A DNA stretch of 32,000 bases from Thermococcus sp. SY098 (GCF_035621495.1 NZ_CP141821.1:368760-400759); one strand, 5' to 3'. Positions 4,301 through 29,575 are shown, counted from the first letter of the stretch. Notes: a model not told the origin generated them from the sequence alone. A program made the numbers and translations.

Positions 4301-5029
4301 ATGGTTACATTTATTCCGTTTGGAGAAAAACCAAACAGAGAGGGCGTCATGTATGTTCTCAATTTTCTTCAAAAAAACAAGCTTATTGAGGATTACATGG
4401 TTGTTGAATCGAATACCATTGAACTGCTTTCTGAGAGATTGCCCGTGGATGAGGCATACATAATCGGTGATCATCTTGCAACGTATGGAATACTTCAAAA
4501 GCTAAAGCCAAAGGCAGTTATAAGCATAGATGCTCACACTGACTTAATGCATGATTATCTGGATCATGGTTCTTGGCTCGCTTATGCTCTTTCCGAGAGA
4601 ATAATTGAAAAGGCATCAATTATTGGCCCTGTTCTGATGATACCTACCACAGAAGGGACCGAACTGTGGACAAGACGGGTTAAGATATTCCCCGCCCTAC
4701 CCAGAAGCAGAAAAACAAGAGGTAGATGGAAAGCTTACAAGAGCTTGAAGAATCATCCGATAGATGAGATAATAAAAGATACTAAAAAGTACCTCGGAGA
4801 AGAAATATATCTTACCATTGATTTGGATGTTCTCCTACCTGAGTACAAAATTGCCCGATTTCAGCATGGTGAACTTACGTTGGAGGAACTTCTCAACATC
4901 CTTGAAGAAATTAAGAGGAACTTTAACATCATGGCATTTGATATAGCGGAGATTTCAGATAAGATAAAACGTTCCCGTTTAGGAAAAAAGGCCTTAGCTG
5001 ATGTATTTCAACTGTTAAGCGGTGAGTAA
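4301..5029 (+). CDS. arginase/agmatinase/ureohydrolase-family protein
   Basis: Motifs IGDHLATYG, SIDAHTDL and TIDLDVL resemble the Mn-binding GGDH / DAHxD / DxDxxD blocks of the arginase fold. Track start 4289 is TTG, and the first ATG is at 4301. TTTAAAAA at 4262-4269 is a plausible TATA, giving a short or no leader. Confidence 0.55.
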   Translation: MVTFIPFGEKPNREGVMYVLNFLQKNKLIEDYMVVESNTIELLSERLPVDEAYIIGDHLATYGILQKLKPKAVISIDAHTDLMHDYLDHGSWLAYALSERIIEKASIIGPVLMIPTTEGTELWTRRVKIFPALPRSRKTRGRWKAYKSLKNHPIDEIIKDTKKYLGEEIYLTIDLDVLLPEYKIARFQHGELTLEELLNILEEIKRNFNIMAFDIAEISDKIKRSRLGKKALADVFQLLSGE

Positions 5030-6620: not shown

Positions 6621-9600
6621 TCACTTTAAGATGTACTGTTTAATTTCCTCATACATATTGTTGAGAACTTCCTGATAATCTGCTTTGTTTTCCTCTACCA
6701 AGTCCATAAGCTCTTCAAGCTGTCTCGTCCTTTCTTCACTTACAAGCTCTTTGTATTTACTTATGAGATAGTGATAGACTTTAGTTCCAAGTTCTGTTGG
6801 GACTAACTTCTTCCTTCCTTTTGTCTCAATGACATAGTGTCTGTCCAAGAGTGTCTTAACGATCTTTGCATAGGTAGATGGCCTTCCAATCTTACGCTCT
6901 TTCATAAGGGCAATCAAATCGCCCTGAGTGTAAAGGGAAACTTTTGGTGCTCTCCATTTCTTAACTTCAATGACTTTGAGTTTCTGTCCTTTTTCAAGCT
7001 TTGGCAGCTGTCTTAATGGGGGTGCCCTTAATTTAGTCCAGCCATCAAAGATCACTTCAATATATCCCTCAATCTCAGTCTTGGCAACTCTTGCATCGAT
7101 CACAGCTTTCTCATAGAGAACTTTCGCAGGTTTCATCTGCGATGCCATGAACCGCTTAAATATCATGTCATAAAGCCTGAAGTGATCTCTTGTAAGTCCC
7201 CTTGCAAGGGTAATGACACCATCTCTCAGCAGTTGCATCAGTCTTCCGGTGTCAATTGGTCTTGTGGGTCTTATACACTCGTGTGCTCCCTCTTCACCCC
7301 ACTTTCTTGGAGCGAAGTATTCTTCCCCAATTTCTTCGCTAATGTATTCCTTTGCAACTTCAATACCCGTATTGCTAACGTGAGTTGAATCAGTTCTGTG
7401 ATAAGTAATAAGACCAAGCTCGAAAAGATCCTGAGCCAATTGCATTGTATGAGGAGCAGAAAATCCTAAAAATCTTGAAGCATCTTGAAGCATTGTATCT
7501 GTGGTATACGGTGGGAATGGGTTGATCTCCTTCTCTTCAATTTTGACATCCTCAACGATTATTTCGTTGACTTCCTCTTTAACGCCTTCAAGGGTTACGC
7601 TTAAGCCGTTCTCCAAAGTCAGCGCCATGAAATCTGTCTCGCTCTCTACAAATTCCTTGTATCTCTGTATCACCCATCCAAGAACTGGCGTCTGAACCCT
7701 ACCAGCCGATAAGTTTCTGCTCTCAAAGACCTCCCAGAGCTTTTGGCTGAGCTCGAATCCAATCCATCTGTCCTCTATTCTCCTCACTAATTGGGCATTG
7801 ACCCTAAACTCATTAACGTCTCTCGCTTCATTCAATGCTTTCAATATGGCCGGTCTTGTAACTTCGTGGAACTCAATACGCTTGATGTTTGGGGTGTAAG
7901 GACTTAAGACATTCCTGATATCCCATGCAATCTTTTCTCCCTCGACATCTGGGTCAGTCCCTATGAGAATTTCATCAACTTCCTGAGCTATCTCACGCAT
8001 TGCAATTACATTTTCCAGAGCATCCCTAACATTCCTTGAGCCACATCTTGGACAGACTCCTCTCTCCTCCCAGTCAACGAACTGATGACCGCAGTCCCTA
8101 CAGCGTTTTATTGTGTCATAGACTGGTATGAAGTAGAGCTTTCCGTTCCTCTCCTCTATGATGACACCATGGTAACCTTCCGTTGTAACGAGGTCAAACA
8201 TATGTCCGCCGCTTGCCAGAATCGTCAGCATCCTGTCTCCTATGCTTACCTCATATGCAACCAAGTCGCCAATTCTTCTCTTGCTTGGCTGTCCAAAGAA
8301 ATTAGCAATTGTCCTGGCTTTATTGGGTGATTCAACGATCATTAGAGCAGACTTAACTAAATCCTTGGTCTTCTCACTTATCTTTCCAGCAAGAATTAGC
8401 CTAACTTTCTCCCTATCGGCATCGATCTCTCTCAAAAGCTCCTCAAGATTGAGCTCTTCAAACGACTTCATCTCAAACTCAGCAAAGCGCCATCTCATCT
8501 GCCTCTTCAAGCCGTTGAAGACCTTTTCGTTGTCCACTATTATTACGCTCAGGCCCTTTGTAATTCCACCAGCAAAGAGACGTGAAGTCCTTCCGCTTGC
8601 TTGGATATAAGTCCTAACATCGGGAATCTCAATGTACCATTTTCCCTCCTCTTCTTTGAGACTGACGAATGGATCTTCTTCTATGCGCTTGAGCACTTCC
8701 TTCTTCTTCAGAACTCTCCTCAGGAACTCAACTGCCTGTCTGAATACTTCAAGGACATGGCTATGGAATCCTTCCAACGGTAGACCTTCAGCCAATGCCT
8801 CTTCAATTTTCATCAATTCAAACTGTGGAATGTTTCTAATCAAACGCCTCAAGCGAGCATAAAGCCTTTCGCCTTCTCTTCTATCTTCTTCATCAAGGAA
8901 TTCCATGACTTCACTCATCAGTCCTAAAACCCTGTAAATTGTGGGCTGCTCTAAGTCAAGGCTGAACCTGAATTTCGGCACACCTGTAAAGATTGCATAT
9001 CTGATCAAGTATGGCAGATCTAATCCCCTAACTATTGTTCCGTAATAGGTTGCAACACCAACTAAATAGTCAATCTCTTCGTTTTCAAACTTCTCCAAGC
9101 CTTTCTTGTTTCTTGCGGAGACAAGCTCAACCTTGAAACCTCTCTCTTGGAGATATTGTGTAAGCTTCTCAGCGTAACCAATTCCTTGATCAATTGGGAC
9201 AAATATTAGTCCTCCCTTACCGAGTTTTGTCAAAAGTTCTTCAACATGTTCCTCAATTGACTTCTCTGGGAAGAGATAGCTGTCAACAACATTTCTCAAC
9301 GCTGACCTTCCGCTTCCCACTTCGAAGTCCAAAAGCTCACGGTAGAGCTTTATCCTATCTCCCCTTGCGCTTCCAGTTGCTGAAGCTACAATTAATACTC
9401 CAATTTTATTCTCACGCTTGAATTTTCTTATTTCCCTCTCAAGCTTGTTAATCTGCTTGTTGAGTTCCTTCAACTGTTCTTGCTTGTCTGGGCTGTTGCC
9501 ATTAAGGAATTTTGCCATCTGCTTCTTCAGCCTTATAATTTCCCATGCCTTCTGGATTATCTCTTCTGTAAAGCCGAGCAGAATAAGGGAGCGGTCAATG

Positions 9601-10271
9601 TTCTTTGAGGCTTTCAAAAATGCGTCAACATCATCAACAAAAATGAAGTCAAATCTCTTATCCTTGAGCATCTCGTCGAAGTTTCTCGCAAGCCATTGGG
9701 CTGAAGTTATGAGAATATCAAAATCTCCGTTCATGATTTTTTCAGTCATCTCCTCTTTTTCCTTCTTCTTCATGCCACCGTGGTAATAGGCAAGGTTAAT
9801 CTCAATTCCAGCCCTCTCTGCAAATGTTTTCACTCTCTTAATTGTCTGCACCACAAGCGGTGTTGTTGGTAAGACTATGTAGCTCTTCTTTTTCTTTTTG
9901 GCATAATACAATGCCATGAATGATCCAAAAACACTTTTGCCCATGCCTGTTGGAGCTATGATGGAAAAGCTCTTATTTTTAATTAGTCTCTTCACCCAGG
10001 TTTTTTGAGCACTCCAGAAGTTAAAACCCGTGGCTTTCTCAAAGAGCTCTTCAATCTCTCTCAACCTTTTCTCAAGCTTGTAGATATTCTCCCAGTGCTT
10101 CAGTGTTCCACGCAGCTTGAGAGCTTCTCTAATGCCCGTTATCAAATCAAAGTAAATTTCGGCCTGAATTTCCTTATCGAGACAAACATCACATGGATGC
10201 TTCTTGTACAAGCGTTCATCACTAATCCTATCTTCACAATTTGGGCACATTTCCCTATAAATCGCTTTCAT
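6621..10271 (-). CDS. rgy: reverse gyrase
   Basis: N-terminal Zn finger CPNC..CDVC, helicase Walker [14 protein letters not shown] box, Toprim IVESPNKA, second Zn finger CRDC..CPRC, topo-IA active-site block ITYHRTDS. No intein-like insertion. ATG at 10271 ([12 protein letters not shown]) has GAGGGTGAG upstream (track start 10307). Confidence 0.97.
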
Positions 10272-10348
10272 TTTCTCACCCTCTAATGTTCTATTTAGGT
10301 AATGCAAAGTTTATAAGGGTTTTTTAGATTCCCATTGTGGGTGGGACA

Positions 10349-10729
10349 ATGATAATCGAGAGAATTAAGCTTAAGGCTGAGCTCACAGAAGAGCAGTATG
10401 AGAGAGCAATAAAGCTTATAGAGAAGTCTAAATCAAGATTTTCAAACGCTCTCGTGAAAAGGTTCAAAACACAAGAAAAGATAAGCTTTATTGATGTGGA
10501 TTTAGGTGTAAGGTTGAATTTTGATATAATAATTGGAAATCGTGGTAAGCCCTTTATAGCTGTAGAAATGGAAGGAAATAAGTCAAAATATGCCTTTCAG
10601 ATAATGAAATTTTTCCTTGACGAGCTCGGTGTTGAGTATTCCTTCGATTTTGACGGAAGAGAGGTTTATGACGCGTTGAAGAGGAAAATTAAGGCAAAGA
10701 GCCTGCTGGATTATTTGGACGTGGGATAA
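10349..10729 (+). CDS. hypothetical protein (126 aa)
   Basis: ORF with GGTGGG SD before ATG at 10349 (track start 10337 is GTG). No motif recognised. 3' end overlaps the convergent ATPase gene by 19 nt. Confidence 0.5.
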   Translation: MIIERIKLKAELTEEQYERAIKLIEKSKSRFSNALVKRFKTQEKISFIDVDLGVRLNFDIIIGNRGKPFIAVEMEGNKSKYAFQIMKFFLDELGVEYSFDFDGREVYDALKRKIKAKSLLDYLDVG

Positions 10730-16663: not shown

Positions 16664-17131
16664 CTAAACTAAAAAGCGAAATCCAAGACTCGGGATTAAC
16701 GTTATCATCATGCTCAACAAACCGCCAAGAATCAGAGCGGGGATTGTTTTTCTATTTCCCATCCCAAAGATGTAAGCGGCTAAACTCCCAGTCCAGATCC
16801 CGGTGCCAGGTAAAGGCACGGCAACAAATATTATCAACCCATAAAATCCCCACTTCTCTACATACGGGTGAGCTTTCTTCCTAACCCGCTGCACATATTT
16901 TAGATACATCTCTGCCACTTTTCCCAGAAACGTTTTTTCAAGAGTGACCATTACAACATCAATAAGAGGTAGAAACAAGGGCAAGGTTAAAGAAAGGAGC
17001 AAAACGCCCAAAGAAGCCGTCAAAAGAGTTTCCCATAACGGGTACCCTTTTGCAATTCCATACACTATTGCGTACCTTCCCTCAAAAGTTGGCAATAGTG
17101 AAAGTAAGAAGATATATACGAATTCATTCAA
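16664..17131 (-). CDS. small integral membrane protein (putative small multidrug-export family, COG2426-like)
   Basis: 155 aa, about 4 TM helices. The LLPTFEGRYAIVYGI motif resembles that family. GGAGGTG SD. Confidence 0.45.
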   Translation of the reverse strand: MNEFVYIFLLSLLPTFEGRYAIVYGIAKGYPLWETLLTASLGVLLLSLTLPLFLPLIDVVMVTLEKTFLGKVAEMYLKYVQRVRKKAHPYVEKWGFYGLIIFVAVPLPGTGIWTGSLAAYIFGMGNRKTIPALILGGLLSMMITLIPSLGFRFLV

Positions 17132-20104: not shown

Positions 20105-20548
20105 ATGGAGTATCTTGAGATTCCCCTTTTGGATGAAAATGGACAGGAAGTAAAGCTGAGGGATTTTCTTGGCAGGTGGATAGTCCTCTACGTGTATCCA
20201 AAGGACAACACCCCGGGCTGTACTATGGAGGCTAAAGAGTTCACAGAGCTTTTACCTGAATTTGAGAAGCTTGGAGTTCTTGTCATTGGAATCAGCAAAG
20301 ATTCCGTTGAGTCTCACAGAAGATTTAAAGACAGGCACAATCTTAAGGTTAAACTCCTCAGCGACCCAGAAGTTAAGTTGATAAGGAGTTTGGGGGCTTG
20401 GGGCAGAAAGATGAGGGGAGAGGGAGTATTGAGGAGTACCTTTATAATAAACCCCGAGGGAAAAATTGTGTGGGAAAAGAAGAGGGTTAAAGCTAAGGGA
20501 CACGCCGTTAAGGTTCTTGAAGTTGTTAAAGAACTGGTGAAAAAATGA
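20105..20548 (+). CDS. bcp: peroxiredoxin, Bcp type
   Basis: YPKDNTPGCTMEA peroxidatic Cys motif in a 147-aa thioredoxin fold. Confidence 0.85.
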   Translation: MEYLEIPLLDENGQEVKLRDFLGRWIVLYVYPKDNTPGCTMEAKEFTELLPEFEKLGVLVIGISKDSVESHRRFKDRHNLKVKLLSDPEVKLIRSLGAWGRKMRGEGVLRSTFIINPEGKIVWEKKRVKAKGHAVKVLEVVKELVKK

Positions 20549-20739
20549 GAATAATAACTCCCATTCCACCGGAAGAGCTTAAGATGATCCTAAAGAAATC
20601 AAACGCTGCAGTTAGATTGGAGATTAAAGAAGCTAAACCTTTTCATGGAATGCCCAGGTATGAGGTAATTATTAGCGGAAATAAAGAGGAAGTAGAGAAG
20701 TTTATGGAAAAGCTTAGGTTAGCAAGAGCTGGGGGTTAA
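20545..20739 (+). CDS. hypothetical protein (64 aa), coupled to bcp
   Basis: ATGA overlap with the bcp stop. No motif recognised. Confidence 0.45.
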   Translation: MRIITPIPPEELKMILKKSNAAVRLEIKEAKPFHGMPRYEVIISGNKEEVEKFMEKLRLARAGG

Positions 20740-20876
20740 CTTTCCTTTTTCAGGCTTCTTTTCTCCAGGTATTTCTCCAACAAAGTTCTCACAATAAATA
20801 GTGCTAAAAATAGTGCTATAATTAAAGCAACTTTTCCAAGAGAGACTCCGCCGGGAGCAGATATGGGATTATACAC
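20736..20876 (-). CDS. unannotated 46-aa single-TM mini-protein (GTG start)
   Basis: Hand translation: (M)YNPISAPGGVSLGKVALIIALFLALFIVRTLLEKYLEKRSLKKES*. GGTGAGGTGAT SD 3 nt before the GTG. Begins 23 nt after the radical-SAM stop. Its stop overlaps the stop of the convergent 64-aa ORF inside GTTAAC. Confidence 0.4.
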   Translation of the reverse strand: MYNPISAPGGVSLGKVALIIALFLALFIVRTLLEKYLEKRSLKKES

Positions 20877-20899: not shown

Positions 20900-21955
20900 T
20901 CATCCTATCATTGCGTTTTTCAACTCAAACTCTGCAGCAAGCTCAGTAGCCCTCTGCATCTCTTCATAGTTTAACCTTCTGGCAATTTCCGGGTATCTAT
21001 CTGCTCTGTACTCTGGTCTGTACTGAAACATCACGTTTACTCTAACTTCTTTTCCAAGATTCTCCGCTATCCACTTTAAGATAGGCTTAGTGCAACATTC
21101 CAAATGGTTCGGCATTACCAAGTGCCTTATCAAGAATTCTGCTTTATAGTGCTCCTTAGCCAGGAGAAAGTTCCTTGTCACGACTTCCCAATAGCGAGGA
21201 GCCTTTGAATATTTAATGGCATCTTCGTTGTTGCCCCACTTAAAATCGGCTAAGTATACATCGACTATCCCATCCAGAAGCCTCATTGTGATCTCACTCA
21301 TGTACATGTTTGAGTTCCAAACCACCGGAATTGGAACTTTAACGTATCTGAGGGTCTCAAGGATAAAAGGTAAATTTGGCGTTGGCTCTCCCCCAACAAA
21401 ATTAACATTTTTGGCTCCCTCTGCATATGCAACGGCAATTTTAGTCGCCATATCCTCTGGAGAATATCTTAATCCAACCCTGTACTGGCTTATATCCCAG
21501 TTCTGGCAGAATACACATCTAAAATTGCACCCAGAAAAGAATATGGTGTATGATGGAATTAATTCAGGCTCTTCCCCGATGTGCAAAAAGTCGCTTGCAA
21601 TTAATGTCTCTTTAACTCGGCAGTAGCCAATACTCTCCTTTCTGTTTACATGGCACTTAATCTCACAGAGCTCACATTTTTTAAGGATTCTGTCTGCTAT
21701 TAAAGCTTTGAGATCAAGCAAACTTTTCTCAGGGCTCTCGCTTAGATCATTTTCTCTCAGTTTTTCCATGCCTTCTTCATGGATATTCCATAGTTCTTCA
21801 AGTGAGTCATCTTTTGAAAAATCAACCTTCACCTGCTTGGCATAGAAAAAGTTAGGCTTCTCTCTGCCAGAGAGCACCTCAAAATAATGGGGCATTGCCC
21901 TCTTTGCTTTCTCAATTTCCCCTATATCTACTCTGCGGAACCACATATCCATCAT
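20900..21955 (-). CDS. radical SAM protein, PflX / PFL-activase-like
   Basis: FFSGCNFRCVFCQNW carries the CX3CX2C cluster motif. An extra N-terminal Cys cluster (CELCEIKCHVNR...GYCRV) is present. A TTTTTATAAG TATA-like box about 20 nt upstream suggests a near-leaderless transcript. Confidence 0.8.
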   Translation of the reverse strand: MMDMWFRRVDIGEIEKAKRAMPHYFEVLSGREKPNFFYAKQVKVDFSKDDSLEELWNIHEEGMEKLRENDLSESPEKSLLDLKALIADRILKKCELCEIKCHVNRKESIGYCRVKETLIASDFLHIGEEPELIPSYTIFFSGCNFRCVFCQNWDISQYRVGLRYSPEDMATKIAVAYAEGAKNVNFVGGEPTPNLPFILETLRYVKVPIPVVWNSNMYMSEITMRLLDGIVDVYLADFKWGNNEDAIKYSKAPRYWEVVTRNFLLAKEHYKAEFLIRHLVMPNHLECCTKPILKWIAENLGKEVRVNVMFQYRPEYRADRYPEIARRLNYEEMQRATELAAEFELKNAMIG

Positions 21956-21986: not shown

Positions 21987-22187
21987 TCAAACTTCCTCAA
22001 GCTTCTTCTTAACATCTTCAGTGTATCTCTTTGTTTCCTCTAATACATTCCTAAGGTTGCTGAGTTCAAGTTTGAGCTCACTCAGAGTTTTATTCATCTG
22101 ATAGAAGGCAAAAACGACAATGACAATGAGGATTAAACCTAAAATTATTGAAATCCATCCACTTGGTGTTCCACCATATGCAGGCAT
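21987..22187 (-). CDS. 66-aa TM + coiled-coil mini-protein
   Basis: MPAYGGTPSGWISIILGLILIVIVVFAFYQM is one TM helix, followed by a heptad-like helix (LSELKLELSNLRNVLEETKRY...). Starts 3 nt after the ArsR-type gene stop, with its SD inside that gene's end. Confidence 0.6.
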   Translation of the reverse strand: MPAYGGTPSGWISIILGLILIVIVVFAFYQMNKTLSELKLELSNLRNVLEETKRYTEDVKKKLEEV

Positions 22188-22190
22188 CCT

Positions 22191-22487
22191 TCACTCCTCC
22201 TTTAGATTTTTTATAATGTCATTATCGATTACAAACCTAAAAGGTTTTGCCCTGTAGTATTTTTTAGCCCTTGGATCACCGGGTTCAAGCCGGAGCTCAC
22301 TTTCAATGAGATTCGCTTTTTCAAGTTTTTTCAAATGGAGATACAAGAGTTGTCTTGAAATGTTAAGCTCTTTTGCAAGCTCATAAACATACCACTCCTT
22401 TTCACAGAGCATCTTGAGTATTTTGACTCTTATCGGAACACTTAATGCCTCCGCAACCACTGTCAGTTCTTGTATGCTTCCAACCAT
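22191..22487 (-). CDS. ArsR/SmtB-type winged-helix transcriptional regulator
   Basis: PIRVKILKMLCEKEWYVYELAKELNISRQLLYLHLKKLEKANLI is the ArsR-type HTH. No canonical CxC metal site in helix 3. Start is ATG 22487 or GTG 22496. Confidence 0.75.
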   Translation of the reverse strand: MVGSIQELTVVAEALSVPIRVKILKMLCEKEWYVYELAKELNISRQLLYLHLKKLEKANLIESELRLEPGDPRAKKYYRAKPFRFVIDNDIIKNLKEE

Positions 22488-22538
22488 TTTCACCACGTAA
22501 TCTAAATTATTGCATAAGCCAGAATTCCCTTACGTACT

Positions 22539-22548
22539 ATTATAAAAA
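22539..22548 (-). promoter_or_regulatory. candidate TATA box for the ArsR-type gene
   Basis: Minus-strand TTTTTATAAT about 40-50 nt upstream of the candidate starts. Confidence 0.3.
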
Positions 22549-22571
22549 GGGAAAATAAAAACTTTTCGAAA

Positions 22572-22736
22572 TTATTTTTTGGCGATTAGGTAGATCAGTG
22601 CACCAATTAGTATGAACGGCAACAGTAGGAAGGCTAACCTAAACAGCAGGAGGAATACTCCAAAGATTCCAAACCACCACCAGCCAAATCCCCACCTTCT
22701 TCTACCAAACATTGGGCCCCCAAATCCTCTGGGCAT
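22572..22736 (-). CDS. 54-aa RG/Trp-rich membrane mini-protein
   Basis: MPRGFGGPMFGRRRWGFGWWWFGIFGVFLLLFRLAFLLLPFILIGALIYLIAKK. GGTGAT-N4-ATG at 22736. The track's 73-aa version (start 22793) overlaps the upstream gene and is less likely. Confidence 0.6.
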   Translation of the reverse strand: MPRGFGGPMFGRRRWGFGWWWFGIFGVFLLLFRLAFLLLPFILIGALIYLIAKK

Positions 22737-22746
22737 TTTCATCACC

Positions 22747-23052
22747 CTACTCGGGTAGATACAACCAACCAACAATTTTATCATTATAATCAAGTGTCAC
22801 CTTAATCCCAAAGGCAGTCTGATATGCACTCCCAATGCTCAGCTCTTCAATTGAGTAATCACCGACAATTTTTCCGACATAGTGACCATAATTATCACTG
22901 AGCTTTTGGACAATGCCTCTTGATGTCTGGAACTTTTCAATCTTTATTCTTCTCAAGACATTCAATGCGTCTTCCTCAACTTCATCAACTGGAATTTCTT
23001 CAATCGGAAATTCCCCATATTCAACGAAGTGAAATATTTTAACAGCTTCCAT
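22747..23052 (-). CDS. PepSY-like small protein, no signal peptide (paralog of 26496-26960)
   Basis: The C-terminal ~64 aa (IEKFQTSRGIVQKLSDNYGHYVGKIVGDYSIEELSIGSAYQTAFGIKVTLDYNDKIVGWLYLPE) are about half identical by eye to the C-terminus of the 26496-26960 product. ATG 23052 has GGAGGATGA 7 nt upstream. Alternative ATG 23115 overlaps the upstream stop (ATGGTGA). Confidence 0.6.
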   Translation of the reverse strand: MEAVKIFHFVEYGEFPIEEIPVDEVEEDALNVLRRIKIEKFQTSRGIVQKLSDNYGHYVGKIVGDYSIEELSIGSAYQTAFGIKVTLDYNDKIVGWLYLPE

Positions 23053-23108
23053 ATTTTCATCCTCCACAGTGCTTAGCCACAAAATGGAAATATGGAAAAA
23101 GAAAGGGT

Positions 23109-23822
23109 TCACCATCTTCCTCCTCTAAATCCTCTCATACTTCTACCTCTATCATCCATTCCAGTGTTCATAGGACTCGAGATTATCTCATTATACTCAT
23201 CCTCGCTGATTACTTGGGGTTCATATGTTATACCATAATTCTGAAGCACGCTTGTGAATGCCCTTAAATGGTTCTCCGAGCCTGCCATGAGGTTTTCATA
23301 TACCTGGATTATGTCGGCATTGTCAGTCTTTGCAATCCACTCCTCCAGATCCTTGAGGTCTGTCTCCTCAATGAGTGCCCCAACCTTGAGTGCATCTTCA
23401 ATGCTTTGGCTCCCCATTGCTATAAGCTGGTCATATAAAGCCTGAAGCTCTGGGTTTGTGAATACTCCAACTTCATCTACTGCTGGATCCTCAATGCCGT
23501 ACTTTTCGAGTAAGCTTAACACTGCATCCATGTGCATCTGCTCACTGTTTGCTATGTTCCGGAATATTTGCAAACCGTACATTTCATAGAGTGTTAAATA
23601 GACATCCCTCGCCAGCTTTTCCTCTTCCCTCATCCAGAGCAGTCCATCAACCTCTTCCTGTGTGAGTGTGTCGCTTCCATAGATTGCGGCGTATGGCCTA
23701 TCCCATGTTGTGTTGCTCCCTCTATCCCATGTATCTGCCCACCATGGCATTGCTGCTACACTGCCAAATATAACACCAAACATGAGACCCAACAACCCTA
23801 AACTTAATATTTTCTTCCTCAT
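23109..23822 (-). CDS. secreted DUF2202 ferritin-like protein
   Basis: Signal peptide MRKKILSLGLLGLMFGVIFGSVAA, then LLWMREEEKLARDVYLTLYEMYGLQIFRNIANSEQMHMDAV..., the hallmark of DUF2202 (COG4902) as I recall it. Gly/Arg-rich tail RGRSMRGFRGGRW. GGAGGAGGT SD 7 nt before ATG 23822 (track start 23870 reads through the operator). Confidence 0.7.
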   Translation of the reverse strand: MRKKILSLGLLGLMFGVIFGSVAAMPWWADTWDRGSNTTWDRPYAAIYGSDTLTQEEVDGLLWMREEEKLARDVYLTLYEMYGLQIFRNIANSEQMHMDAVLSLLEKYGIEDPAVDEVGVFTNPELQALYDQLIAMGSQSIEDALKVGALIEETDLKDLEEWIAKTDNADIIQVYENLMAGSENHLRAFTSVLQNYGITYEPQVISEDEYNEIISSPMNTGMDDRGRSMRGFRGGRW

Positions 23823-23837
23823 GTTCTCGACCTCCTC

Positions 23838-23863
23838 CATATGTAACTTCATTATTACATATG
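23838..23863. promoter_or_regulatory. operator-like perfect inverted repeat, copy A
   Basis: CATATGTAA (23838-23846), 8 nt, TTACATATG (23855-23863). Begins 10 nt downstream of the TATA box and spans the expected TSS. Identical copy at 26976-27001. Confidence 0.6.
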
Positions 23864-23872
23864 TAGCCAAAC

Positions 23873-23887
23873 TTTATAAAATTTTCG
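23873..23887 (-). promoter_or_regulatory. BRE/TATA promoter of operon A
   Basis: Minus strand reads CGAAAAT-TTTATAAA (purine-rich BRE then TATA), 51 nt upstream of ATG 23822. Confidence 0.6.
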
Positions 23888-24068
23888 GTGCAAAGTAATG
23901 CCTCCAGATACAATTAGCGTTCTTGAAGATAATCGGGTTGCAATATCCTGAAAGATATACAAAAAAGCAGAACCTCTCAATCTACTTCGCTCTTTCTAAT
24001 TTTAGCAGCTTATTTAAGCATCATGATTTAATCTGCTAATAACTAAGCTGAAAAATATAAAACTGAAT

Positions 24069-25241
24069 TCAGGGCTGTTCTCTTCTTCTAACGGGCATAC
24101 GCGCTTTTCCTTTTAGGATACCTCTGCCAGCTAAATAGCAAGTTCTCAGTTCCTCCCTAAGCTTTATCATAAGCTCCTGGGCTGTGTCATAATCCCCGTT
24201 CCTTACAGCTGCTTTTATTGCCTCCATCAGTTGCAGTGCCGCTGTTACATTGACTCCTAATCTTTCCATGACCATGAGCTGAGCTTCGACTCTTATGATT
24301 TCCCTTTGTAGCTTCATCTTAATGTCGCTCATTATCATTTTTCTAATGTCCTCACCGGCAAATCTGATAACAACTTCTGCTTTGGATTTTGCGGCTATTG
24401 CAAGACCATATGCCAGTCCATACTTTCCACTGTTGTATGCATCTTTTGCATCTTCAAGTTGCTTTTCTGCTATTCTTAAGAGGGTTTTAAGGGCAGGATT
24501 TGTTGCATTCTCAGCGAGTTCTTTTGCTGTGTTCACTTTTTCCTCAGCTATTTGTATTGCCTCAAGGGCCCTCTCAGCAGTTATGTTGAGATGGAGCTCT
24601 GTGCAGTTACATTCCTGCTTTCTAAGCTGTTTCATAATGTAAAGCATTGTTTGATTCATGGTGGGGGTTCCAATTATTGTGAAGTTGCCTGCCCTGACGT
24701 GTAGCCGCTCCATAACTTTTGTAATATTCGTGGTTTGGTTCACCAGCACTATCATTGCCCTCTCACGGATTGCAAGTTGCAGTGCCTTTTCAATTCCTGC
24801 TAAATCCGTACCTGCCACGAGGATAACTTTGTTTTGTAGCTGTAGTTGAAACTTTACAGTGGCGTTTCTAATTACTGCTAAATCTGTTTCATACCTGTTC
24901 TGTCCCCACCATCTTTCAACGCTAATGCCTAAATTCTGCAGGTCTTCAACGTATTCCTCTGGAACTGCCACTGGTCCCCCAATAATAATGACCTCATCTG
25001 GGGCATAGCTGATTATCTCCGCAGTTACATTGGGATTGTAGATTCCCCAAGGAGTCTTAACTATTACAACATTCACATTTACCGTTATATTCGCAATATA
25101 ATCGGCCAATGCACAGTCCGCCTCATTATCACTCACTAAAATGACTACCATGGTTTCTGACGCATTTACAGGCGTGAATGTCAATGGGAGACCCAAGATT
25201 ATCAAGCCAAACATCACTGACAGCATTTTTTTCCACATCAT
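24069..25241 (-). CDS. secreted, sequon-rich protein with CWB2-like N-terminal modules and helical C-terminal half
   Basis: Signal peptide MMWKKMLSVMFGLIILGLPLTFTPVNA. ILVSDNEADCALADYIA...VIIIGGPVAVPEEYV...WWGQNRYETDLAV resembles cell-wall-binding-repeat-2 modules. 12 N-x-S/T sequons counted by hand. Basic tail KGKARMPVRRREQP. Own SD GGGGGTGATGGAG. Confidence 0.5.
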   Translation of the reverse strand: MMWKKMLSVMFGLIILGLPLTFTPVNASETMVVILVSDNEADCALADYIANITVNVNVVIVKTPWGIYNPNVTAEIISYAPDEVIIIGGPVAVPEEYVEDLQNLGISVERWWGQNRYETDLAVIRNATVKFQLQLQNKVILVAGTDLAGIEKALQLAIRERAMIVLVNQTTNITKVMERLHVRAGNFTIIGTPTMNQTMLYIMKQLRKQECNCTELHLNITAERALEAIQIAEEKVNTAKELAENATNPALKTLLRIAEKQLEDAKDAYNSGKYGLAYGLAIAAKSKAEVVIRFAGEDIRKMIMSDIKMKLQREIIRVEAQLMVMERLGVNVTAALQLMEAIKAAVRNGDYDTAQELMIKLREELRTCYLAGRGILKGKARMPVRRREQP

Positions 25242-25466
25242 TCTCCATCACCCCCACTATTTTTAATAAACAAGATATATTTAAGCTTTTTTCACGAAAT
25301 CGTCGCTTATTGTTTCCGTTTGTTCAATTTGAACCCAGTATTTTGTCCAATTCCCTGTTGATTGTTAAATAACGTTTGCAATCGTTTATCTATGTTTAAA
25401 ACCACATCAAAAGTCAATTTAAAGACATTAAAAGAACATTAAAGAAGTCAGAAACAGTTAAGAACT

Positions 25467-25688
25467 TCAGGCTTCTTGAAGGACTTCATTGATGTGTTTG
25501 CTCTGATCTCTTAACTGCTGTGCCACTGAATTAGTCTGCTTGATCTCTTCAAGGAGTGCATCCAGGGATCTCTTCAACATATACAGTGAAGATGCAACTA
25601 CAATGACCAAGACTACCCAAAAGCCAATTATCAAATAATCTATCCTTGTCATTTCAGGATAAAAGGAGGAAAAATATGGCCCAGGCAT
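25467..25688 (-). CDS. 73-aa TM + coiled-coil mini-protein
   Basis: IDYLIIGFWVVLVIVVASSLYML is the TM helix, followed by LKRSLDALLEEIKQTNSVAQQLRDQSKHINEVLQEA. ATG directly abuts the upstream stop (TGAATG). Same architecture as the 66-aa protein at 21987-22187. Confidence 0.6.
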   Translation of the reverse strand: MPGPYFSSFYPEMTRIDYLIIGFWVVLVIVVASSLYMLKRSLDALLEEIKQTNSVAQQLRDQSKHINEVLQEA

Positions 25689-26333
25689 TCAACTTCCTCC
25701 CTGTTTTGCTTTTGCTATGGCTTCAGCTAAGATTTCCTTAAACTGCTCTCTGTCCAACTCATTGTTAACCTCTATCGTCTCAAGCAGCTGATCAGGCTGA
25801 GCTTCAATATTATAGTCTGCTTTTAGGATTTCAACAAGTTTTTGGGGATCTACATCATACATCTCGGCAAGTTGCTCCAATGTCAAACTCTTTAACATAG
25901 AGCCCGTTATCTCTATTGTTGTGTTATCAACCGTTACCGATATCTCTTCAGGTGATGTAGTCTCGGATGTAGTTTCTTCCTCGGCAGTTAATGCGGCAAA
26001 CGCAAAATATCCACCAGCAAGTACTAAGCTAATTAAGATTAGACTTCCAACCACTTTAGCCCTACTTTTCTTAAATGCAGATTTGAGCATGACAACCATG
26101 CTGTTGAATCCGATTATTAAATGAACTGCCACTAAACCAATCATGACAAATCCCAGATATGTATGTACTGTTTCCCAAGTGTCCTTAGTTACACCCAAGA
26201 ACGTCCACCCAATGGCGTCTGCTATTCTGCCTGACGGTGCTTGATAAAGCGCAATTCCAGATATCGCCACAAGTACAAACACCACTGTCAAAACTAAATC
26301 AACTGTCCCCCTTAACCAAGCTGGTGCCTTCAT
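25689..26333 (-). CDS. DUF4405-type membrane protein with extracytoplasmic C-terminal domain
   Basis: LRGTVDLVLTVVFVLVAISGIALY...TWETVHTYLGFVMIGLVAVHLIIGFN fits the DUF4405 pattern (H-x13-H in one helix). Third TM, then an acidic Thr/Ser linker and a helical domain. GGTGAT-N4-ATG at 26333 (alternatives 26339 and 26348). Confidence 0.6.
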   Translation of the reverse strand: MKAPAWLRGTVDLVLTVVFVLVAISGIALYQAPSGRIADAIGWTFLGVTKDTWETVHTYLGFVMIGLVAVHLIIGFNSMVVMLKSAFKKSRAKVVGSLILISLVLAGGYFAFAALTAEEETTSETTSPEEISVTVDNTTIEITGSMLKSLTLEQLAEMYDVDPQKLVEILKADYNIEAQPDQLLETIEVNNELDREQFKEILAEAIAKAKQGGS

Positions 26334-26338
26334 TTCCA

Positions 26339-26461
26339 TCACCCACAATCCTTTTTAGTGCATTCCTCTTTTTGAGCCGTTACAGGTACAGGGATAACAT
26401 TTTCTTTCTTCTCAATGATTAATGATGGCAGCAAAATTCCGAGTTTTTTCAGCAACTCCAT
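26339..26461 (-). CDS. unannotated 40-aa peptide with C-terminal CxxxxC
   Basis: Hand translation: MELLKKLGILLPSLIIEKKENVIPVPVTAQKEECTKKDCG*. GGAGGGGGG SD before the ATG. Its stop TGA is embedded in the SD/start region of the DUF4405 gene (GGGTGATGG). Confidence 0.45.
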   Translation of the reverse strand: MELLKKLGILLPSLIIEKKENVIPVPVTAQKEECTKKDCG

Positions 26462-26474
26462 AAAGCCCCCCTCC

Positions 26475-26485
26475 AAAATAAAAAA
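26475..26485 (-). terminator. intra-operon oligo-T tract (possible attenuating terminator)
   Basis: Minus strand reads CCCTTTTTTATTTTGG, 10 nt after the stop of the PepSY-like gene. Archaeal termination commonly uses T5+ tracts. Confidence 0.3.
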
Positions 26486-26495
26486 GGGAAAGAGG

Positions 26496-26960
26496 TCACT
26501 TCATAAGGAAGAACCCCACAATATCCCCATCATAGCTTAGGAATACTTTTATTCCGTTTTGAGTCTCGTATGCTTTGTACACTTCAAGTGAGCTGAGGTC
26601 GTAGTCACCTACTATCTTTCCAATGTATTCTCCATCAAGCACCAACTTTTGCACTGTAATTCCTCTTGGAGTAGTGAACTCCTCAATGGTGACACCGCTT
26701 AGATATTCTTGTATCTGCTGCTCATCAACATTGGCTTCTCCAAGGTATTGCCCTTTGATTCCAAGCCCCATAAACTGAGGAGTTCCCTTTCCATGCTCAC
26801 CATTTTGACCATGCATGTATCTTGCTTTGACAAAGTTTTCACATGGACATTCTGTTGTGCCTGCTGTTTCTGAAGGGACACCCTGATATGCTGCAGCTGC
26901 TCCAAATACCAAACCAAATACCAAAGCCAACAACCCAATACCTAATATTTTCTTTCTCAT
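26496..26960 (-). CDS. secreted PepSY-like protein with Cys/His-rich N-terminal segment
   Basis: Signal peptide MRKKILGIGLLALVFGLVFGAAAA (paralogous to the DUF2202 leader), then TTECPCENFVKARYMHGQNGEHGKG, then a PepSY-like C-terminus homologous to 22747-23052. GGAGAGG SD before ATG 26960 (track start 26990 reads through the operator). Confidence 0.65.
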   Translation of the reverse strand: MRKKILGIGLLALVFGLVFGAAAAYQGVPSETAGTTECPCENFVKARYMHGQNGEHGKGTPQFMGLGIKGQYLGEANVDEQQIQEYLSGVTIEEFTTPRGITVQKLVLDGEYIGKIVGDYDLSSLEVYKAYETQNGIKVFLSYDGDIVGFFLMK

Positions 26961-26975
26961 GTTGAACCGCCTCTC

Positions 26976-27001
26976 CATATGTAACTTCATTATTACATAT
27001 G
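26976..27001. promoter_or_regulatory. operator-like perfect inverted repeat, copy B
   Basis: CATATGTAA (26976-26984), 8 nt, TTACATATG (26993-27001). Identical in sequence, spacer and position relative to the TATA as copy A. Confidence 0.6.
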
Positions 27002-27010
27002 TAGCTAAAC

Positions 27011-27025
27011 TTTATAAAGTTTTCG
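27011..27025 (-). promoter_or_regulatory. BRE/TATA promoter of operon B
   Basis: Minus strand reads CGAAAAC-TTTATAAA, 51 nt upstream of ATG 26960, the same geometry as copy A. Confidence 0.6.
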
Positions 27026-27250
27026 GTTCAAAAAAAGAGCACTGGATGTTCGAAATTAGCCATCAATGATCGCAAACAATTCATGTTGCACCGTTTATTA
27101 CGGAGAAGCTTCGAAAAATTTTGCTAAACAGAAAAATTTATTTGAATAGAGATCGTTAAATATTTATATTTTCTCAAGATGGAGCAGTTAAAGGTTTTTG
27201 TGAACTCAAAACTTTTATAGAATTTCACCATTATGAAATACGGTGGTTCT

Positions 27251-29113
27251 ATGAAAGGTTGGTGGGGAAGAATTTTAAGAGTTGATTTAACAAACAACAA
27301 AGTCAAAGTGCAGGAATATTCTCCAGAAATTGCTCAACTTTTCATCGGTGGAAGGGGATTGGCAGCAAAGATTCTCTGGGATGAAGTCAAGGGAGTTGAT
27401 CCTCTTAGCCCGGAAAACAAGCTTGTCATAGCAGCTGGACCATTTAACGGCCTCCCAACACCAAGCGGAGGAAAATTGGTGGTTGCCGCTAAGAGCCCAC
27501 TTACTGGGGGATATGGGGACGGAAACATAGGAACAATGGCAACTGTGCATCTTAGAAAAGCTGGTTATGATGCCATTGTTATTGAAGGAAAAGCCAAAAA
27601 GCCCGTGTATCTTTACGTTGAAGATGATAATGTAAGCATTCTCAGTGCTGAGGGACTCTGGGGTCTTGATACCTTTAAGACCGAGGAAGAGCTGAAGAAG
27701 ATACACGGCAAGAATGTGGGCATATTGAGCATTGGACCAGGTGGCGAGAATTTAGTGAAATATGCAGTTATAATGTCACAAGAAGGAAGAGCCGGAGGAA
27801 GACCTGGTATTGGTGCAGTAATGGGAAGCAAGAAGCTTAAGGCTATTGTAATTAAAGGAACAAAGGAAATTCCCGTAGCAGATAAAGAAGAGTTAAGAAA
27901 ACTAAGCAAAGAGGCTTACGATGAGATACTGAGTAAGCCGACCTATGAGTTCTGGCACCGTCAGGGAACGATGGCAGCTGTAGAATGGACAAATGAAAAC
28001 TCAGCACTTCCAACATACAACTTCCAAGACGGTTCATTCAAGTTTGCAAGATCAATTGACGGTTACACCTTAGAGGGTATGAAGGTCAAGCAGCGTGGCT
28101 GTCCCTACTGTAACATGCCCTGTGGAAACGTTGTTCTTGACGCCGAAGGATTGGAGAGCGAGCTCGATTATGAAAACGTTGCTTTGCTTGGCTCAAACCT
28201 TGGAATTGGACAGCTCAATAAGGTTGCAGTTTTGAACAGACTCGCCGACATGTACGGTCTTGACACGATATCTTTGGGCGGCTCAATAGCGTTTGTCATG
28301 GAAGCTGTTGAGAAAGGACTTCTCAAAGAAGGCCCAACGTTCGGAGACTACAAGGGAGCAAAAGAACTCGTCAAAGAGATCGCATTCAGGAGTAGCGAGC
28401 TTGGAAACTTCGCCGCTGAAGGTGTAATGAGAATGGCTCAAAAAGTGGAAGGAGGCGAAAACTTTGCAATGCACGTTAAAGGATTAGAGGTCAGTGGTTA
28501 CAACAGTTATATCTATCCCGCAATGGCACTTGCATTTGCAACATCATCAATCGGTGCCCACCACAAGGAAGCATGGGTTATTGCTTGGGAAATCGGTACA
28601 GCACCAATTGAAGGAGAGCAGGCAAAGAAGGTTGAGTACAAGATCACATATAGCCCAGAAAAGGCTGCAAAGGTTATTGAGCTGCAGAGATACAGAGGTG
28701 GACTGTTCGAGATGCTCTCTGCATGTAGGCTGCCATGGATTGAGGTTGGACTAAGCATTGACTATTATCCAAAGCTCCTGAAGGCAATAACCGGAGTCAC
28801 ATACACATGGGGCGACCTCTTTGCAGCAGCTGACAGGCTCTATGCATTGATTAGAGCTTACTGGGTTAGAGAGTTCAACGGAAACTGGAGCAGGAGGATG
28901 GACTATCCACCAAAGAGATGGTTCATTGAGGGACTCAAGAGCGGGCCATACAAAGGCAAGCACCTTGAGGAGGACAAGTACGACAAGCTGCTCAGTGAAT
29001 ACTACAAGATGCGCGGCTGGGACGAGAGAGGAATCCCAACTAAGGAAACACTCCAGAAGCTCAAGCTTGACTTCGTCATTCCAGAGCTTGAGAAGGTTAC
29101 GGAGCTTCATTAA
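27251..29113 (+). CDS. for: tungsten-containing formaldehyde:ferredoxin oxidoreductase (AOR family)
   Basis: [62 protein letters not shown].. is very close to my memory of P. furiosus FOR over the full length. GGTGGT SD before ATG 27251 gives 620 aa. CTTTTATAGAA TATA about 35 nt upstream. Confidence 0.9.
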
Positions 29114-29140: not shown

Positions 29141-29172
29141 GCCTGTTGAAGACGTTCTTAGAGGTGATGCTC

Positions 29173-29403
29173 ATGATAAGAATTAAACTCATGGGTGCTT
29201 TGGCTCACTTAGCTGGATCAAGCGAGATTTATATTGAAGTTGATAAACCGAAAACAGTGGATGAGGTATTAAAGGAGATCGTCAAGGGTTACGACAAACT
29301 ACATGACAAGATAATTATGGTCAACGGAAAAGTGGCGAGAGGAGACGTTATTGTGAAAGATGGGGATGAAATAAAGGTAATGCCGGTCTTAAGTGGTGGC
29401 TAA
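29173..29403 (+). CDS. MoaD/ThiS-type ubiquitin-like beta-grasp protein with C-terminal Gly-Gly
   Basis: MIRIKLMGALAHLAGSSEIYIEV...VNGKVARGDVIVKDGDEIKVMPVLSGG*. MoaD pattern ending in GG. GAGGTGAT-N4-ATG at 29173 (the track TTG start at 29146 is unlikely). Confidence 0.75.
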   Translation: MIRIKLMGALAHLAGSSEIYIEVDKPKTVDEVLKEIVKGYDKLHDKIIMVNGKVARGDVIVKDGDEIKVMPVLSGG

Positions 29404-29404
29404 A

Positions 29405-29575
29405 ATGGATGAGAAGCTAAAAGCCTGCAAAAACTGTCGGTGGTTTGGCCCAATTGACTCTTACTTTCTGACACAGGGGATATGCAGAAGGCAGATGAAA
29501 ACAACCCACATGAACGCTATCTGTGATGACTGGGAGCCGTTATGGGGCAATAAAAATGAAGATAGCAAGGGTTAA
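29405..29575 (+). CDS. 56-aa four-cysteine mini-protein
   Basis: MDEKLKACKNCRWFGPIDSYFLTQGICRRQMKTTHMNAICDDWEPLW... has a CxxC plus two distal Cys. GGTGG SD. Starts 1 nt after the MoaD-like stop. Confidence 0.5.
   Translation: MDEKLKACKNCRWFGPIDSYFLTQGICRRQMKTTHMNAICDDWEPLWGNKNEDSKG

Follow-up and report, generated by a model that had tools for sequence, protein, structure and literature searches.

The 32,000-nucleotide stretch of the Thermococcus sp. SY098 genome analysed here (GCF_035621495.1, NZ_CP141821.1:368760-400759; hereafter the window) contains a ~5-kb block of ten minus-strand open reading frames (ORFs), which make up a real and coherent module of predicted envelope and regulatory genes that is partly anticipated in the literature. 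The block is flanked by a PflX-like radical SAM gene (20900-21955) and by the gene for formaldehyde ferredoxin oxidoreductase (FOR; 27251-29113, plus strand), the orthologue of P. furiosus FOR (1166 bits to PDB 1B25). All ten ORFs and both flanks agree with the layout described in a first-pass annotation, which had been made from the sequence alone. The window is very close to T. barophilus, with identities to strain CH5 of 99% for FOR and 98% for the radical SAM gene, and it also contains reverse gyrase (6621-10307). Exact-sequence look-ups of the window proteins returned no match.

From the intergenic sequences we infer four transcription units, each of which has its own B recognition element (BRE) and TATA box; a separate promoter is found near the start of the radical SAM gene. 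(A scan for bacterial sigma-70 promoters and terminators was set aside as not applicable to an archaeon.) Unit B begins with B1 (26496-26960, start ATG at 26960; this and all following genes of the block are on the minus strand), which encodes a 154-residue secreted protein, and continues with B2 (26339-26461), a 40-residue ORF ending in ECTKKDCG; DUF4405 (25689-26339), a predicted half-size cytochrome-b-like membrane protein; and B4 (25467-25688), a 73-residue bitopic peptide with a short N-terminus, a transmembrane (TM) helix and a coiled coil ending in QEA/EEV. The gene for a 390-residue candidate secreted glycoprotein (24069-25241) follows with its own promoter. Unit A consists of DUF2202a (23109-23822), a secreted ferritin-like protein whose motifs run E...ExxH...E...ExxH and whose C-terminal tail is R/G-rich; A2 (22747-23052), a 101-residue protein that has no signal peptide; and A3 (22572-22736), a 54-residue peptide in which the R/G/M-rich N-terminus MPRGFGGPMFGRRRW precedes a hydrophobic stretch of ~38 residues. 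The last unit pairs the winged-helix regulator ArsR (22191-22496; likely start ATG at 22487, giving 98 residues), behind its own BRE/TATA, with R2 (21987-22187), a 66-residue bitopic peptide that starts MP.YG.TPSGW and has a TM helix and a coiled coil ending in KKLEEV.

Units A and B open with the same cassette. That of unit B (26973-27032, minus strand) has a BRE at ~27026-27020 and the TATA box TTTATAAA at 27018-27011, followed by the operator CATATGTAATAATGAAGTTACATATG at 27001-26976 and then by the Shine-Dalgarno sequence GGAGAGG. That of unit A (23835-23894, minus strand) has its TATA box at 23880-23873 and an operator of identical sequence at 23863-23838. Over 60 nt the cassettes match at 95% identity, and the signal-peptide codons next to them at 76%, in keeping with the common promoter/operator/leader that had been recognized at the outset. 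The operator is a 26-bp palindrome, CATATGTAA-N8-TTACATATG. In each unit it starts 9 nt downstream of the TATA box and leaves 15 nt, including the ribosome-binding site, to the start codon of the first gene, whichever gene that is. The palindrome core has four matches in the window, where 0.7 are expected, and these are confined to the two cassettes.

We collected 46 loci from complete genomes, metagenome-assembled genomes (MAGs) and metagenome contigs (designated by L numbers) and mapped every window protein onto each. Across Thermococcus and Pyrococcus, 24 distinct promoters have kept the operator ahead of the first gene, once per unit and at a fixed distance to the TATA box and the start codon, with B1, DUF2202a or DUF4405 as the first gene. 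Over these promoters the operator arms carry 1.86 bits per position, compared with 1.11 for BRE/TATA, 1.10 for the spacer and 0.21 for the upstream flank. With a shared cassette and an operator conserved to this extent, units A and B are almost certainly co-regulated, as had been thought very likely. The promoter/operator, the signal peptide and one domain are common to the two units and nothing else is; their earlier description as two paralogous operons was not confirmed. The operator is degenerate in Methanofervidicoccus abyssi, which is without ArsR, and only a remnant of the right arm is present there.

Archaeal TATA boxes are centred ~26 nt upstream of the transcription start. With this usual spacing, transcription would start inside the spacer of the palindrome and the operator would overlap the start, the classic position for an archaeal repressor. 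The left arm would then be untranscribed, which argues against an RNA hairpin. We rejected an RNA-element reading of the palindrome on this ground and because it has no Rfam match and its arms are invariant, without compensatory changes. At up to 3-4 mismatches no operator was found upstream of ArsR, the 390-residue gene, FOR or the aldo-keto reductase (AKR) gene described below, L030 excepted; the best match in the window ArsR promoter is 12/18. Metagenome locus L030 has a degenerate second operator, ACTATGTAG-N8-TTACATATG (4870-4895), directly upstream of ArsR, which suggests that ArsR may be autoregulated in that locus.

The co-occurrence of ArsR with the operator makes it most likely the operator-binding protein and a candidate repressor. 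It is indeed an ArsR-type winged-helix protein, as first read (Pfam HTH_5, E 5e-13, 49.1 bits against a cut-off of 22), and its ratio of nonsynonymous to synonymous change (pN/pS, computed throughout against close relatives) is 0.04-0.06. Metal sensing, which the first-pass annotation had taken to follow from membership of the ArsR/SmtB family, is not borne out: ArsR has no metal-ligand motif, neither an alpha-5 His/Asp/Glu site nor a His in the C-terminal helix, and its sole Cys, Cys31, is replaced by Val in T. celer and JdFR-02. Its score against the NCBIfam model HTH_metalloreg is 44.1, for a cut-off of 55. A defence-system reading of the block was rejected, as PADLOC gave only matches to the ArsR protein at the level of the helix-turn-helix.

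R2 starts 3 nt after the ArsR stop codon in the window and overlaps ArsR by 4 nt in L010. A peptide of this family (62-69 residues) comes after this ArsR subfamily in every locus with enough downstream sequence, and the R2 homologues, which form 57 clusters, are exclusively from Thermococcus or Pyrococcus. A pN/pS of 0-0.25 points to strong purifying selection. The R2 and B4 families are homologous by profile (hhalign probability 97.8%, E 7.5e-13), with no pairwise BLAST similarity between the two peptides. Their N-termini are uncharged and Lys/Arg residues follow the TM helix, a pattern that points to cytoplasmic coiled coils in both.

The operator at the first gene, ArsR at the 3' end and the R2 peptide form the constant core of the loci, and the cargo between them varies. 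It consists of B1-DUF4405-B4 in T. celer and JdFR-02, B1-DUF4405-DUF2202b in EP1, DUF2202a-A3-DUF4405-DUF2202b in T. nautili and many contigs, DUF2202a-DUF4405 in Pyrococcus ST04, DUF4405-B4-390 in Thermococcus sp. 5-4, DUF2202a alone or with A2 in L021 and L025, and a remote B1-like protein alone in L010/L011. The chromosomal surroundings of these loci are of at least five unrelated kinds, and ArsR and R2 are found behind the cargo in those of T. celer, sp. 5-4, T. nautili, Pyrococcus ST04 and L010. Profiling of gene neighbourhoods, which had been suggested as a check, thus finds that co-localization is conserved and that the ArsR-R2 pair travels with cargo from one context to another. M. abyssi has acquired B1, two DUF4405 genes and the 390-residue gene without ArsR-R2 (64-75% identity). 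This horizontally acquired cargo (L004 8485-12851) is found directly after a PflX-like radical SAM gene that appears native, since it is only 40% identical to the Thermococcus gene; the PflX-like family adjoins the module in both M. abyssi and Thermococcus.

The membrane protein of unit B belongs to DUF4405 (Pfam PF14358, arCOG04002; E 6e-17, 62.3 bits against a cut-off of 26.7) and has a secondary match to Ni_hydr_CYTB (5.9e-6). Among 30 homologues H59 is nearly invariant and H73 invariant. The two residues are 14 positions apart on TM2, so that the cytochrome-b-like H-x13-H helix spotted in the first reading is a conserved feature. The AlphaFold model has three TM helices, a disordered acidic linker that carries a sequon, and a confident five-helix C-terminal domain with a weak match to IF2_N; most homologues have a sequon just before the C-terminal domain, and 35 of 35 homologue clusters are from Thermococcus or Pyrococcus. 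Foldseek searches with this model gave non-significant matches, of which the top one is cytochrome b of bc1 (E 2.8). The membrane part and the C-terminal domain are frameshifted or split in L006 (10624-11267), L005 (10533-11181) and L002 (10392-11005), the lineages concerned being T. barophilus CH5, T. celer and a MAG, and a copy in M. abyssi has 92 residues and only two TM helices.

A bacterial DUF4405 protein with six TM helices, linked to FezC, has been purified and binds haem b (PMC11334425, 2024). The flavinylation-associated cytochromes of that study (DUF4405, MsrQ-like and PepSY_TM-like) have the Pfam DUF4405 domain and conserved TM histidines in common with the window protein; a role proposed for both is to carry electrons across the membrane to extracytosolic acceptors. 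The characterized bacterial protein has six TM helices and four His, whereas the window protein has three and two; because only two His are present, haem ligation would require a dimer. By analogy, Thermococcus DUF4405 is a putative haem b protein. A flavinylation system as such was rejected, as neither ApbE nor a flavinylated (FMN-bind) partner is listed among the neighbours in any locus.

DUF2202a (PF09968, arCOG03957; Pfam E 8e-65, 218 bits) aligns with MJ0754 (PDB 3q4n, 3q4o, 3q4q and 3q4r) over residues 51-223 (E 6e-63) and retains EEEKLARDVY, SEQxHMD, IEExD and GSxNHxRAF, including two ExxH motifs, which leaves its earlier identification as a secreted DUF2202 ferritin-like protein in place. 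It shares the helix-bundle ExxH motifs with MJ0754, the structural prototype of DUF2202, which is without an assigned function, and it differs in adding a Sec signal peptide and an R/G-rich tail and in being embedded in a regulon. All DUF2202 copies have Sec-type or lipobox-type signals. Two forms can be distinguished (L013 5887-6732 and 7627-8319; L009 11521-12132; L002 12870-13607). Type a, with A3 behind it, has a B1-like Sec signal and a tail rich in Gly/Met/His/Arg; type b is located after DUF4405 and has a lipobox-like signal (G/A-G-C; GAGC or VAGC). The tail of T. nautili DUF2202a is HGMGGMGGMGHGHGAMGG. The end of type-a tails (WMRGFLG or SMRGFRGG) repeats the N-terminus of A3 (MPRGFG), which hints at an old fusion or fission between the two. 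A3 is a conserved partner of DUF2202a, which it follows in T. nautili and at least six metagenome loci.

DUF4405 and DUF2202 recur together in ferrosome (fez) clusters, where they occur alongside R-rich and GxxxG small proteins (Grant & Komeili, bioRxiv 10.1101/2020.01.10.902569). The window shares this gene pair, and its small proteins with R-rich N-termini and hydrophobic segments may be comparable by composition, A3 and the DUF2202a tails being R/G-rich. The secretion or lipobox signals of the DUF2202 proteins set the window apart from the internal fez organelle and suggest action outside the cell, and ArsR control is a feature of the window and not of fez clusters. Membership of the fez clusters was rejected, as no FezB P1B-6 (E1-E2) ATPase is found among the window ORFs or the annotated neighbours of 10 loci.

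B1 consists of a signal peptide, a disordered Met/His/Gly linker with a conserved MGLG motif, and a C-terminal domain for which AlphaFold 2 predicts a helix and six strands (residues 70-154, predicted local distance difference test score ~90). A2 is a paralogue of this domain (50% identity over 68 residues, E 1e-16). Both proteins had been called PepSY-like, an identity we rejected: the domain has no Pfam PepSY (PF03413) match, giving only dCache_1 at E 0.024, and Foldseek against the PDB returns nothing at E < 0.2. A window ORF at 16664-17131 encodes an Sm_multidrug_ex protein and not a PepSY protein, and an hhalign comparison with it is thus uninformative. B1 is also not Cys/His-rich, as had been claimed; it has 2 Cys and 2 His, none of them conserved, and 4 Met. 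The theme conserved among homologues is instead the Met/His/Gly-rich linker (AMAMKGHGHGM, MMPAQAMEMKGYGHH and GMGHGNSHMM). The family is small: a word search gives 11 clusters, and a set of 1.8 billion proteins yields 18 representatives; genomes were also scanned with an alignment of the B1 domain only (3 loci). We regard the B1/A2 domain, from its sequence and predicted structure, as a novel, beta-rich unclassified domain. Small remote relatives have His/Gly/Met/Cys-rich tails, such as GHGHGHGGGMYC and HGMHGYGMHG, and two giant proteins, P0016 (2132 residues) and P0023 (3185 residues), contain five copies of the domain each, one of them together with haemolysin-type calcium-binding-related repeats. 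Gly/Met/His/Arg-rich segments are thus found in DUF2202a tails, the A3 N-terminus, the B1 linker and the remote B1-domain tails alike.

The remaining members of the block are under varying degrees of constraint. The larger genes (radical SAM, DUF2202, DUF4405, B1 and the 390-residue gene) have pN/pS values of 0.07-0.28, A2 has 0.06, A3 0.13-0.32 and B4 0.32-0.40; these values indicate that R2, A3, B4 and A2 are real genes. A2 is frameshifted in T. barophilus CH5 and absent from L002. B2 has the highest values of the block (0.38-0.41). Its stop codon overlaps the DUF4405 ATG (TGATG), and, contrary to the first description of it as unannotated, it is a called gene in T. barophilus CH5. At its position EP1 and JdFR-02 have two mini-ORFs, one of them a TM peptide ending EC..C, and the window B2 has the beginning of the first joined to the ending of the second. 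In L001, the nearest relative, a Cys has become His and the stop codon is gone, L002 is frameshifted and M. abyssi has internal stops; B2 is probably a decaying, weakly constrained remnant, a fusion of two mini-ORFs. A tiny ORF with a Cys pair (13-56 residues; CxxC, CxxxC or CxxxxC) overlaps the DUF4405 start (TGATG/ATGA) in five lineages (window 26339-26461; L009 10622-10777; L003 ~10370-10540; L012 ~6936-7001; L013 ~6945-6986), with the rest of the peptide unconserved, and is absent from T. celer and Pyrococcus ST04.

The 390-residue protein has a signal peptide, a weak CWB2/S-layer-like N-terminal domain and a helical C-terminal half, and we count in it the 12 N-x-S/T sequons originally reported for the secreted protein between the units. 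Its gene accompanies the module in T. barophilus, Thermococcus sp. 5-4, M. abyssi and several metagenome loci. B1, DUF2202a and the 390-residue protein all have Sec-type signal peptides; going by such signals and by the sequons, B1, DUF2202, the 390-residue protein and the DUF4405 C-terminal domain are predicted to be extracytoplasmic.

FOR and a MoaD/ThiS-like gene flank the module in the barophilus clade, EP1 and JdFR-02. At least 11 loci have, directly behind R2, a second paralogue of the aldehyde ferredoxin oxidoreductase (AOR) family, 31-33% identical to FOR, together with an AKR gene; in Pyrococcus ST04 the two are found on the opposite side of the module. Loci with AKR and the AOR paralogue include L013 (8972-11658), L014 (3361-6101), L021, L023-L025, L029-L031, L033, L041 and L045. 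Comparison with PDB entries led us to reject the paralogue as an AOR, FOR or WOR5 orthologue, and neither AOR-family gene has the operator. Two different AOR-family paralogues adjoin the module in different lineages, and these neighbours deserve more weight than they received in the first-pass annotation, in which the tungstoenzyme was set aside. Downstream of FOR, the window region 29146-29575 (plus strand) contains the MoaD/ThiS-like gene, which encodes 85 residues ending in GG and is overlapped by a 60-residue ORF with four Cys (CKNC...C...C); the ThiS-like gene is kept beside FOR in related genomes. On the other side of the block, the radical SAM gene is followed by a gene for a 46-residue TM peptide (20736-20876, minus strand; annotated in T. 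barophilus CH5), beyond which are a convergent Bcp/AhpC peroxiredoxin gene and the gene for a 64-residue CHP_AF_0576 protein (20105-20739, plus strand). This trio marks a conserved chromosomal insertion site of the module in several Thermococcus genomes.

The module had been presented as undescribed. This Thermococcus neighbourhood does in fact appear in Makarova et al. 2015 (PMC5898192, section 3.6), where arCOG04002/DUF4405 is described as half a cytochrome b561 and the neighbourhood (e.g. CL1_0239-CL1_0246) contains arCOG04002, two ferritin-like arCOG03957 genes, ArsR arCOG01679, secreted arCOG07800, coiled-coil arCOG08354, an AOR and an NADP oxidoreductase, with a predicted role in iron-dependent electron transfer. 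DUF4405, DUF2202, ArsR, a secreted protein, a coiled-coil protein and an adjacent AOR-family enzyme are common to that neighbourhood and the window. The window differs in having FOR in place of the AKR-linked AOR paralogue and in its two operator-controlled units. The published account is one gene-context paragraph, without the operator, the ArsR-peptide pairing, the modular cargo or the B1-led architecture; the present analysis adds these, namely the operator, a regulator invariably paired with a micropeptide and the modularity of the cargo, together with a B1 domain that belongs to no classified family.

On this gene content, these homologies and the conserved operator and co-localization, we favour, with a probability of about 0.45, a Thermococcales-specific, operator-repressed envelope regulon that moves electrons to secreted di-iron and metal-binding proteins. 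The identity of the operator-binding protein, membrane topology, haem binding, direction of electron flow and metal would be as follows. Two units would be under operator control, B1-B2-DUF4405-B4 and DUF2202a-A2-A3. An ArsR dimer would bind the palindrome straddling the transcription start and block initiation, with its input probably provided by the translationally coupled membrane peptide R2. DUF4405 would form a homodimer whose pair of H-x13-H helices carries two b-type haems, and electrons of cytoplasmic origin would travel through it to the outer face, where the DUF2202 di-iron protein and Met/His/Gly-rich B1 would carry out redox chemistry of iron, or possibly of iron and oxidants. The DUF4405-DUF2202 pairing proposed for the ferrosome membrane would thus be placed at the cell surface. 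That the block is a functional envelope unit, as first suggested, is supported by the conservation of the operator and by an ArsR-R2 pair that travels with cargo.

Several points weigh against this regulon of electron transfer. ArsR is linked to the operator only by co-occurrence. DUF2202 is missing from T. celer, JdFR-02 and sp. 5-4, and DUF4405 from L010, L021 and L025; such separate absences indicate that the two are not obligate partners. We know of no recognized haem biosynthesis pathway in Thermococcales, which makes the haem loading of DUF4405 uncertain, and neither quinones nor an obvious cytoplasmic donor docking site are available to it. No ApbE, FMN-binding or FezB gene is present among the annotated neighbours of any locus. 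The Met/His/Gly-rich tails fit Cu or Zn as well as Fe. A literature search by locus tags, arCOG numbers, DUF2202/MJ0754 and WOR4/PF1961 found no experimental work on the archaeal genes. Iron redox handling, oxidant detoxification and soft-metal buffering are inseparable by sequence data.

Of these, oxidant defence would have DUF2202 act at the outer face as a rubrerythrin-like peroxidase or oxidase that is re-reduced by DUF4405 and guards the envelope of an anaerobe from O2 and H2O2. Such a role would suit the rubrerythrin-type ExxH pair of DUF2202, whose ST04 copy weakly matches the Pfam Rubrerythrin family, as well as the Bcp/AhpC peroxiredoxin nearby in several genomes and the adjacent AOR-family and AKR genes for aldehyde detoxification. 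We consider it unlikely, however, since no rubredoxin-like domain or electron donor was identified, the proximity of the peroxiredoxin is ordinary synteny, and the tails of B1 and A3 would be left unexplained. Buffering of soft metals (Cu, Ag or Zn) at the surface, in which B1, the DUF2202a tails and A3 would sequester ions and DUF4405 would act as a cupric or ferric reductase or otherwise in metal handling, draws on the Met/His/Gly-rich B1 linkers, the T. nautili DUF2202a tail and the tails of remote B1-domain proteins. These motifs are, however, poorly conserved in position and sequence, B1 of the window has 4 Met and 2 His only, ArsR is without metal ligands, and a ferritin-like di-iron protein has no obvious Cu role; such buffering is quite improbable as the function of the module.

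The SdpC-SdpI-SdpR system of B. subtilis is a three-protein signalling pathway. It resembles the window in having an ArsR-family repressor beside a membrane protein, a secreted protein in the circuit and a regulator without a ligand site. The module might by analogy be a transmembrane signalling circuit, in which B1 or DUF2202a reports the status of the envelope to the peptide, the peptide sequesters or releases ArsR, and the remaining genes are cargo for envelope remodelling. The minimal set of L010/L011, with the operator, a B1-like secreted protein, ArsR and the peptide and nothing else, is what such a circuit would need, and the translational coupling of ArsR and peptide (3-nt gap; 4-nt overlap in L010), the ArsR without a ligand site and the paralogous peptide B4 among the cargo are all in line with it. 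R2 is, however, a single-TM peptide of 66 residues with no family match and no sequence relationship to SdpI, it would expose only ~10 residues outside the cytoplasm, and the match of ArsR to the SdpR model is weak (30.3 bits against a cut-off of 100); we therefore hold such a circuit to be rather improbable. The least probable reading by far, a variable island of unrelated envelope genes with no common function that are held by local synteny, would account for cargo that differs greatly between genomes and for members that are frameshifted or lost (A2 in CH5, B2, the DUF4405 splits), but not for the same operator, ArsR and peptide accompanying cargo in unrelated contexts and in Pyrococcus, nor for purifying selection on most members.

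To our knowledge, Thermococcales are usually described as being without cytochromes, quinones and classical two-component signalling. If the favoured regulon of envelope electron transfer is correct, Thermococcales, model hyperthermophilic anaerobes, would carry out redox or metal chemistry outside the cytoplasm, and the module would be a tractable archaeal counterpart to the DUF4405-DUF2202 pair of ferrosomes, as genetic tools are available for T. barophilus. It is also conceivable, though unlikely, that a new type of archaeal transmembrane signalling is at work, with R2 tethering or releasing a ligand-less ArsR according to the metal or redox state of the secreted cargo and B4 feeding back. 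A corollary would be that these supposedly haem-free organisms equip a b-type cytochrome with haem, which they would have to make or take up, or else that the His pair serves another cofactor. A defined operator, regulator and micropeptide make the regulation of the module directly testable.

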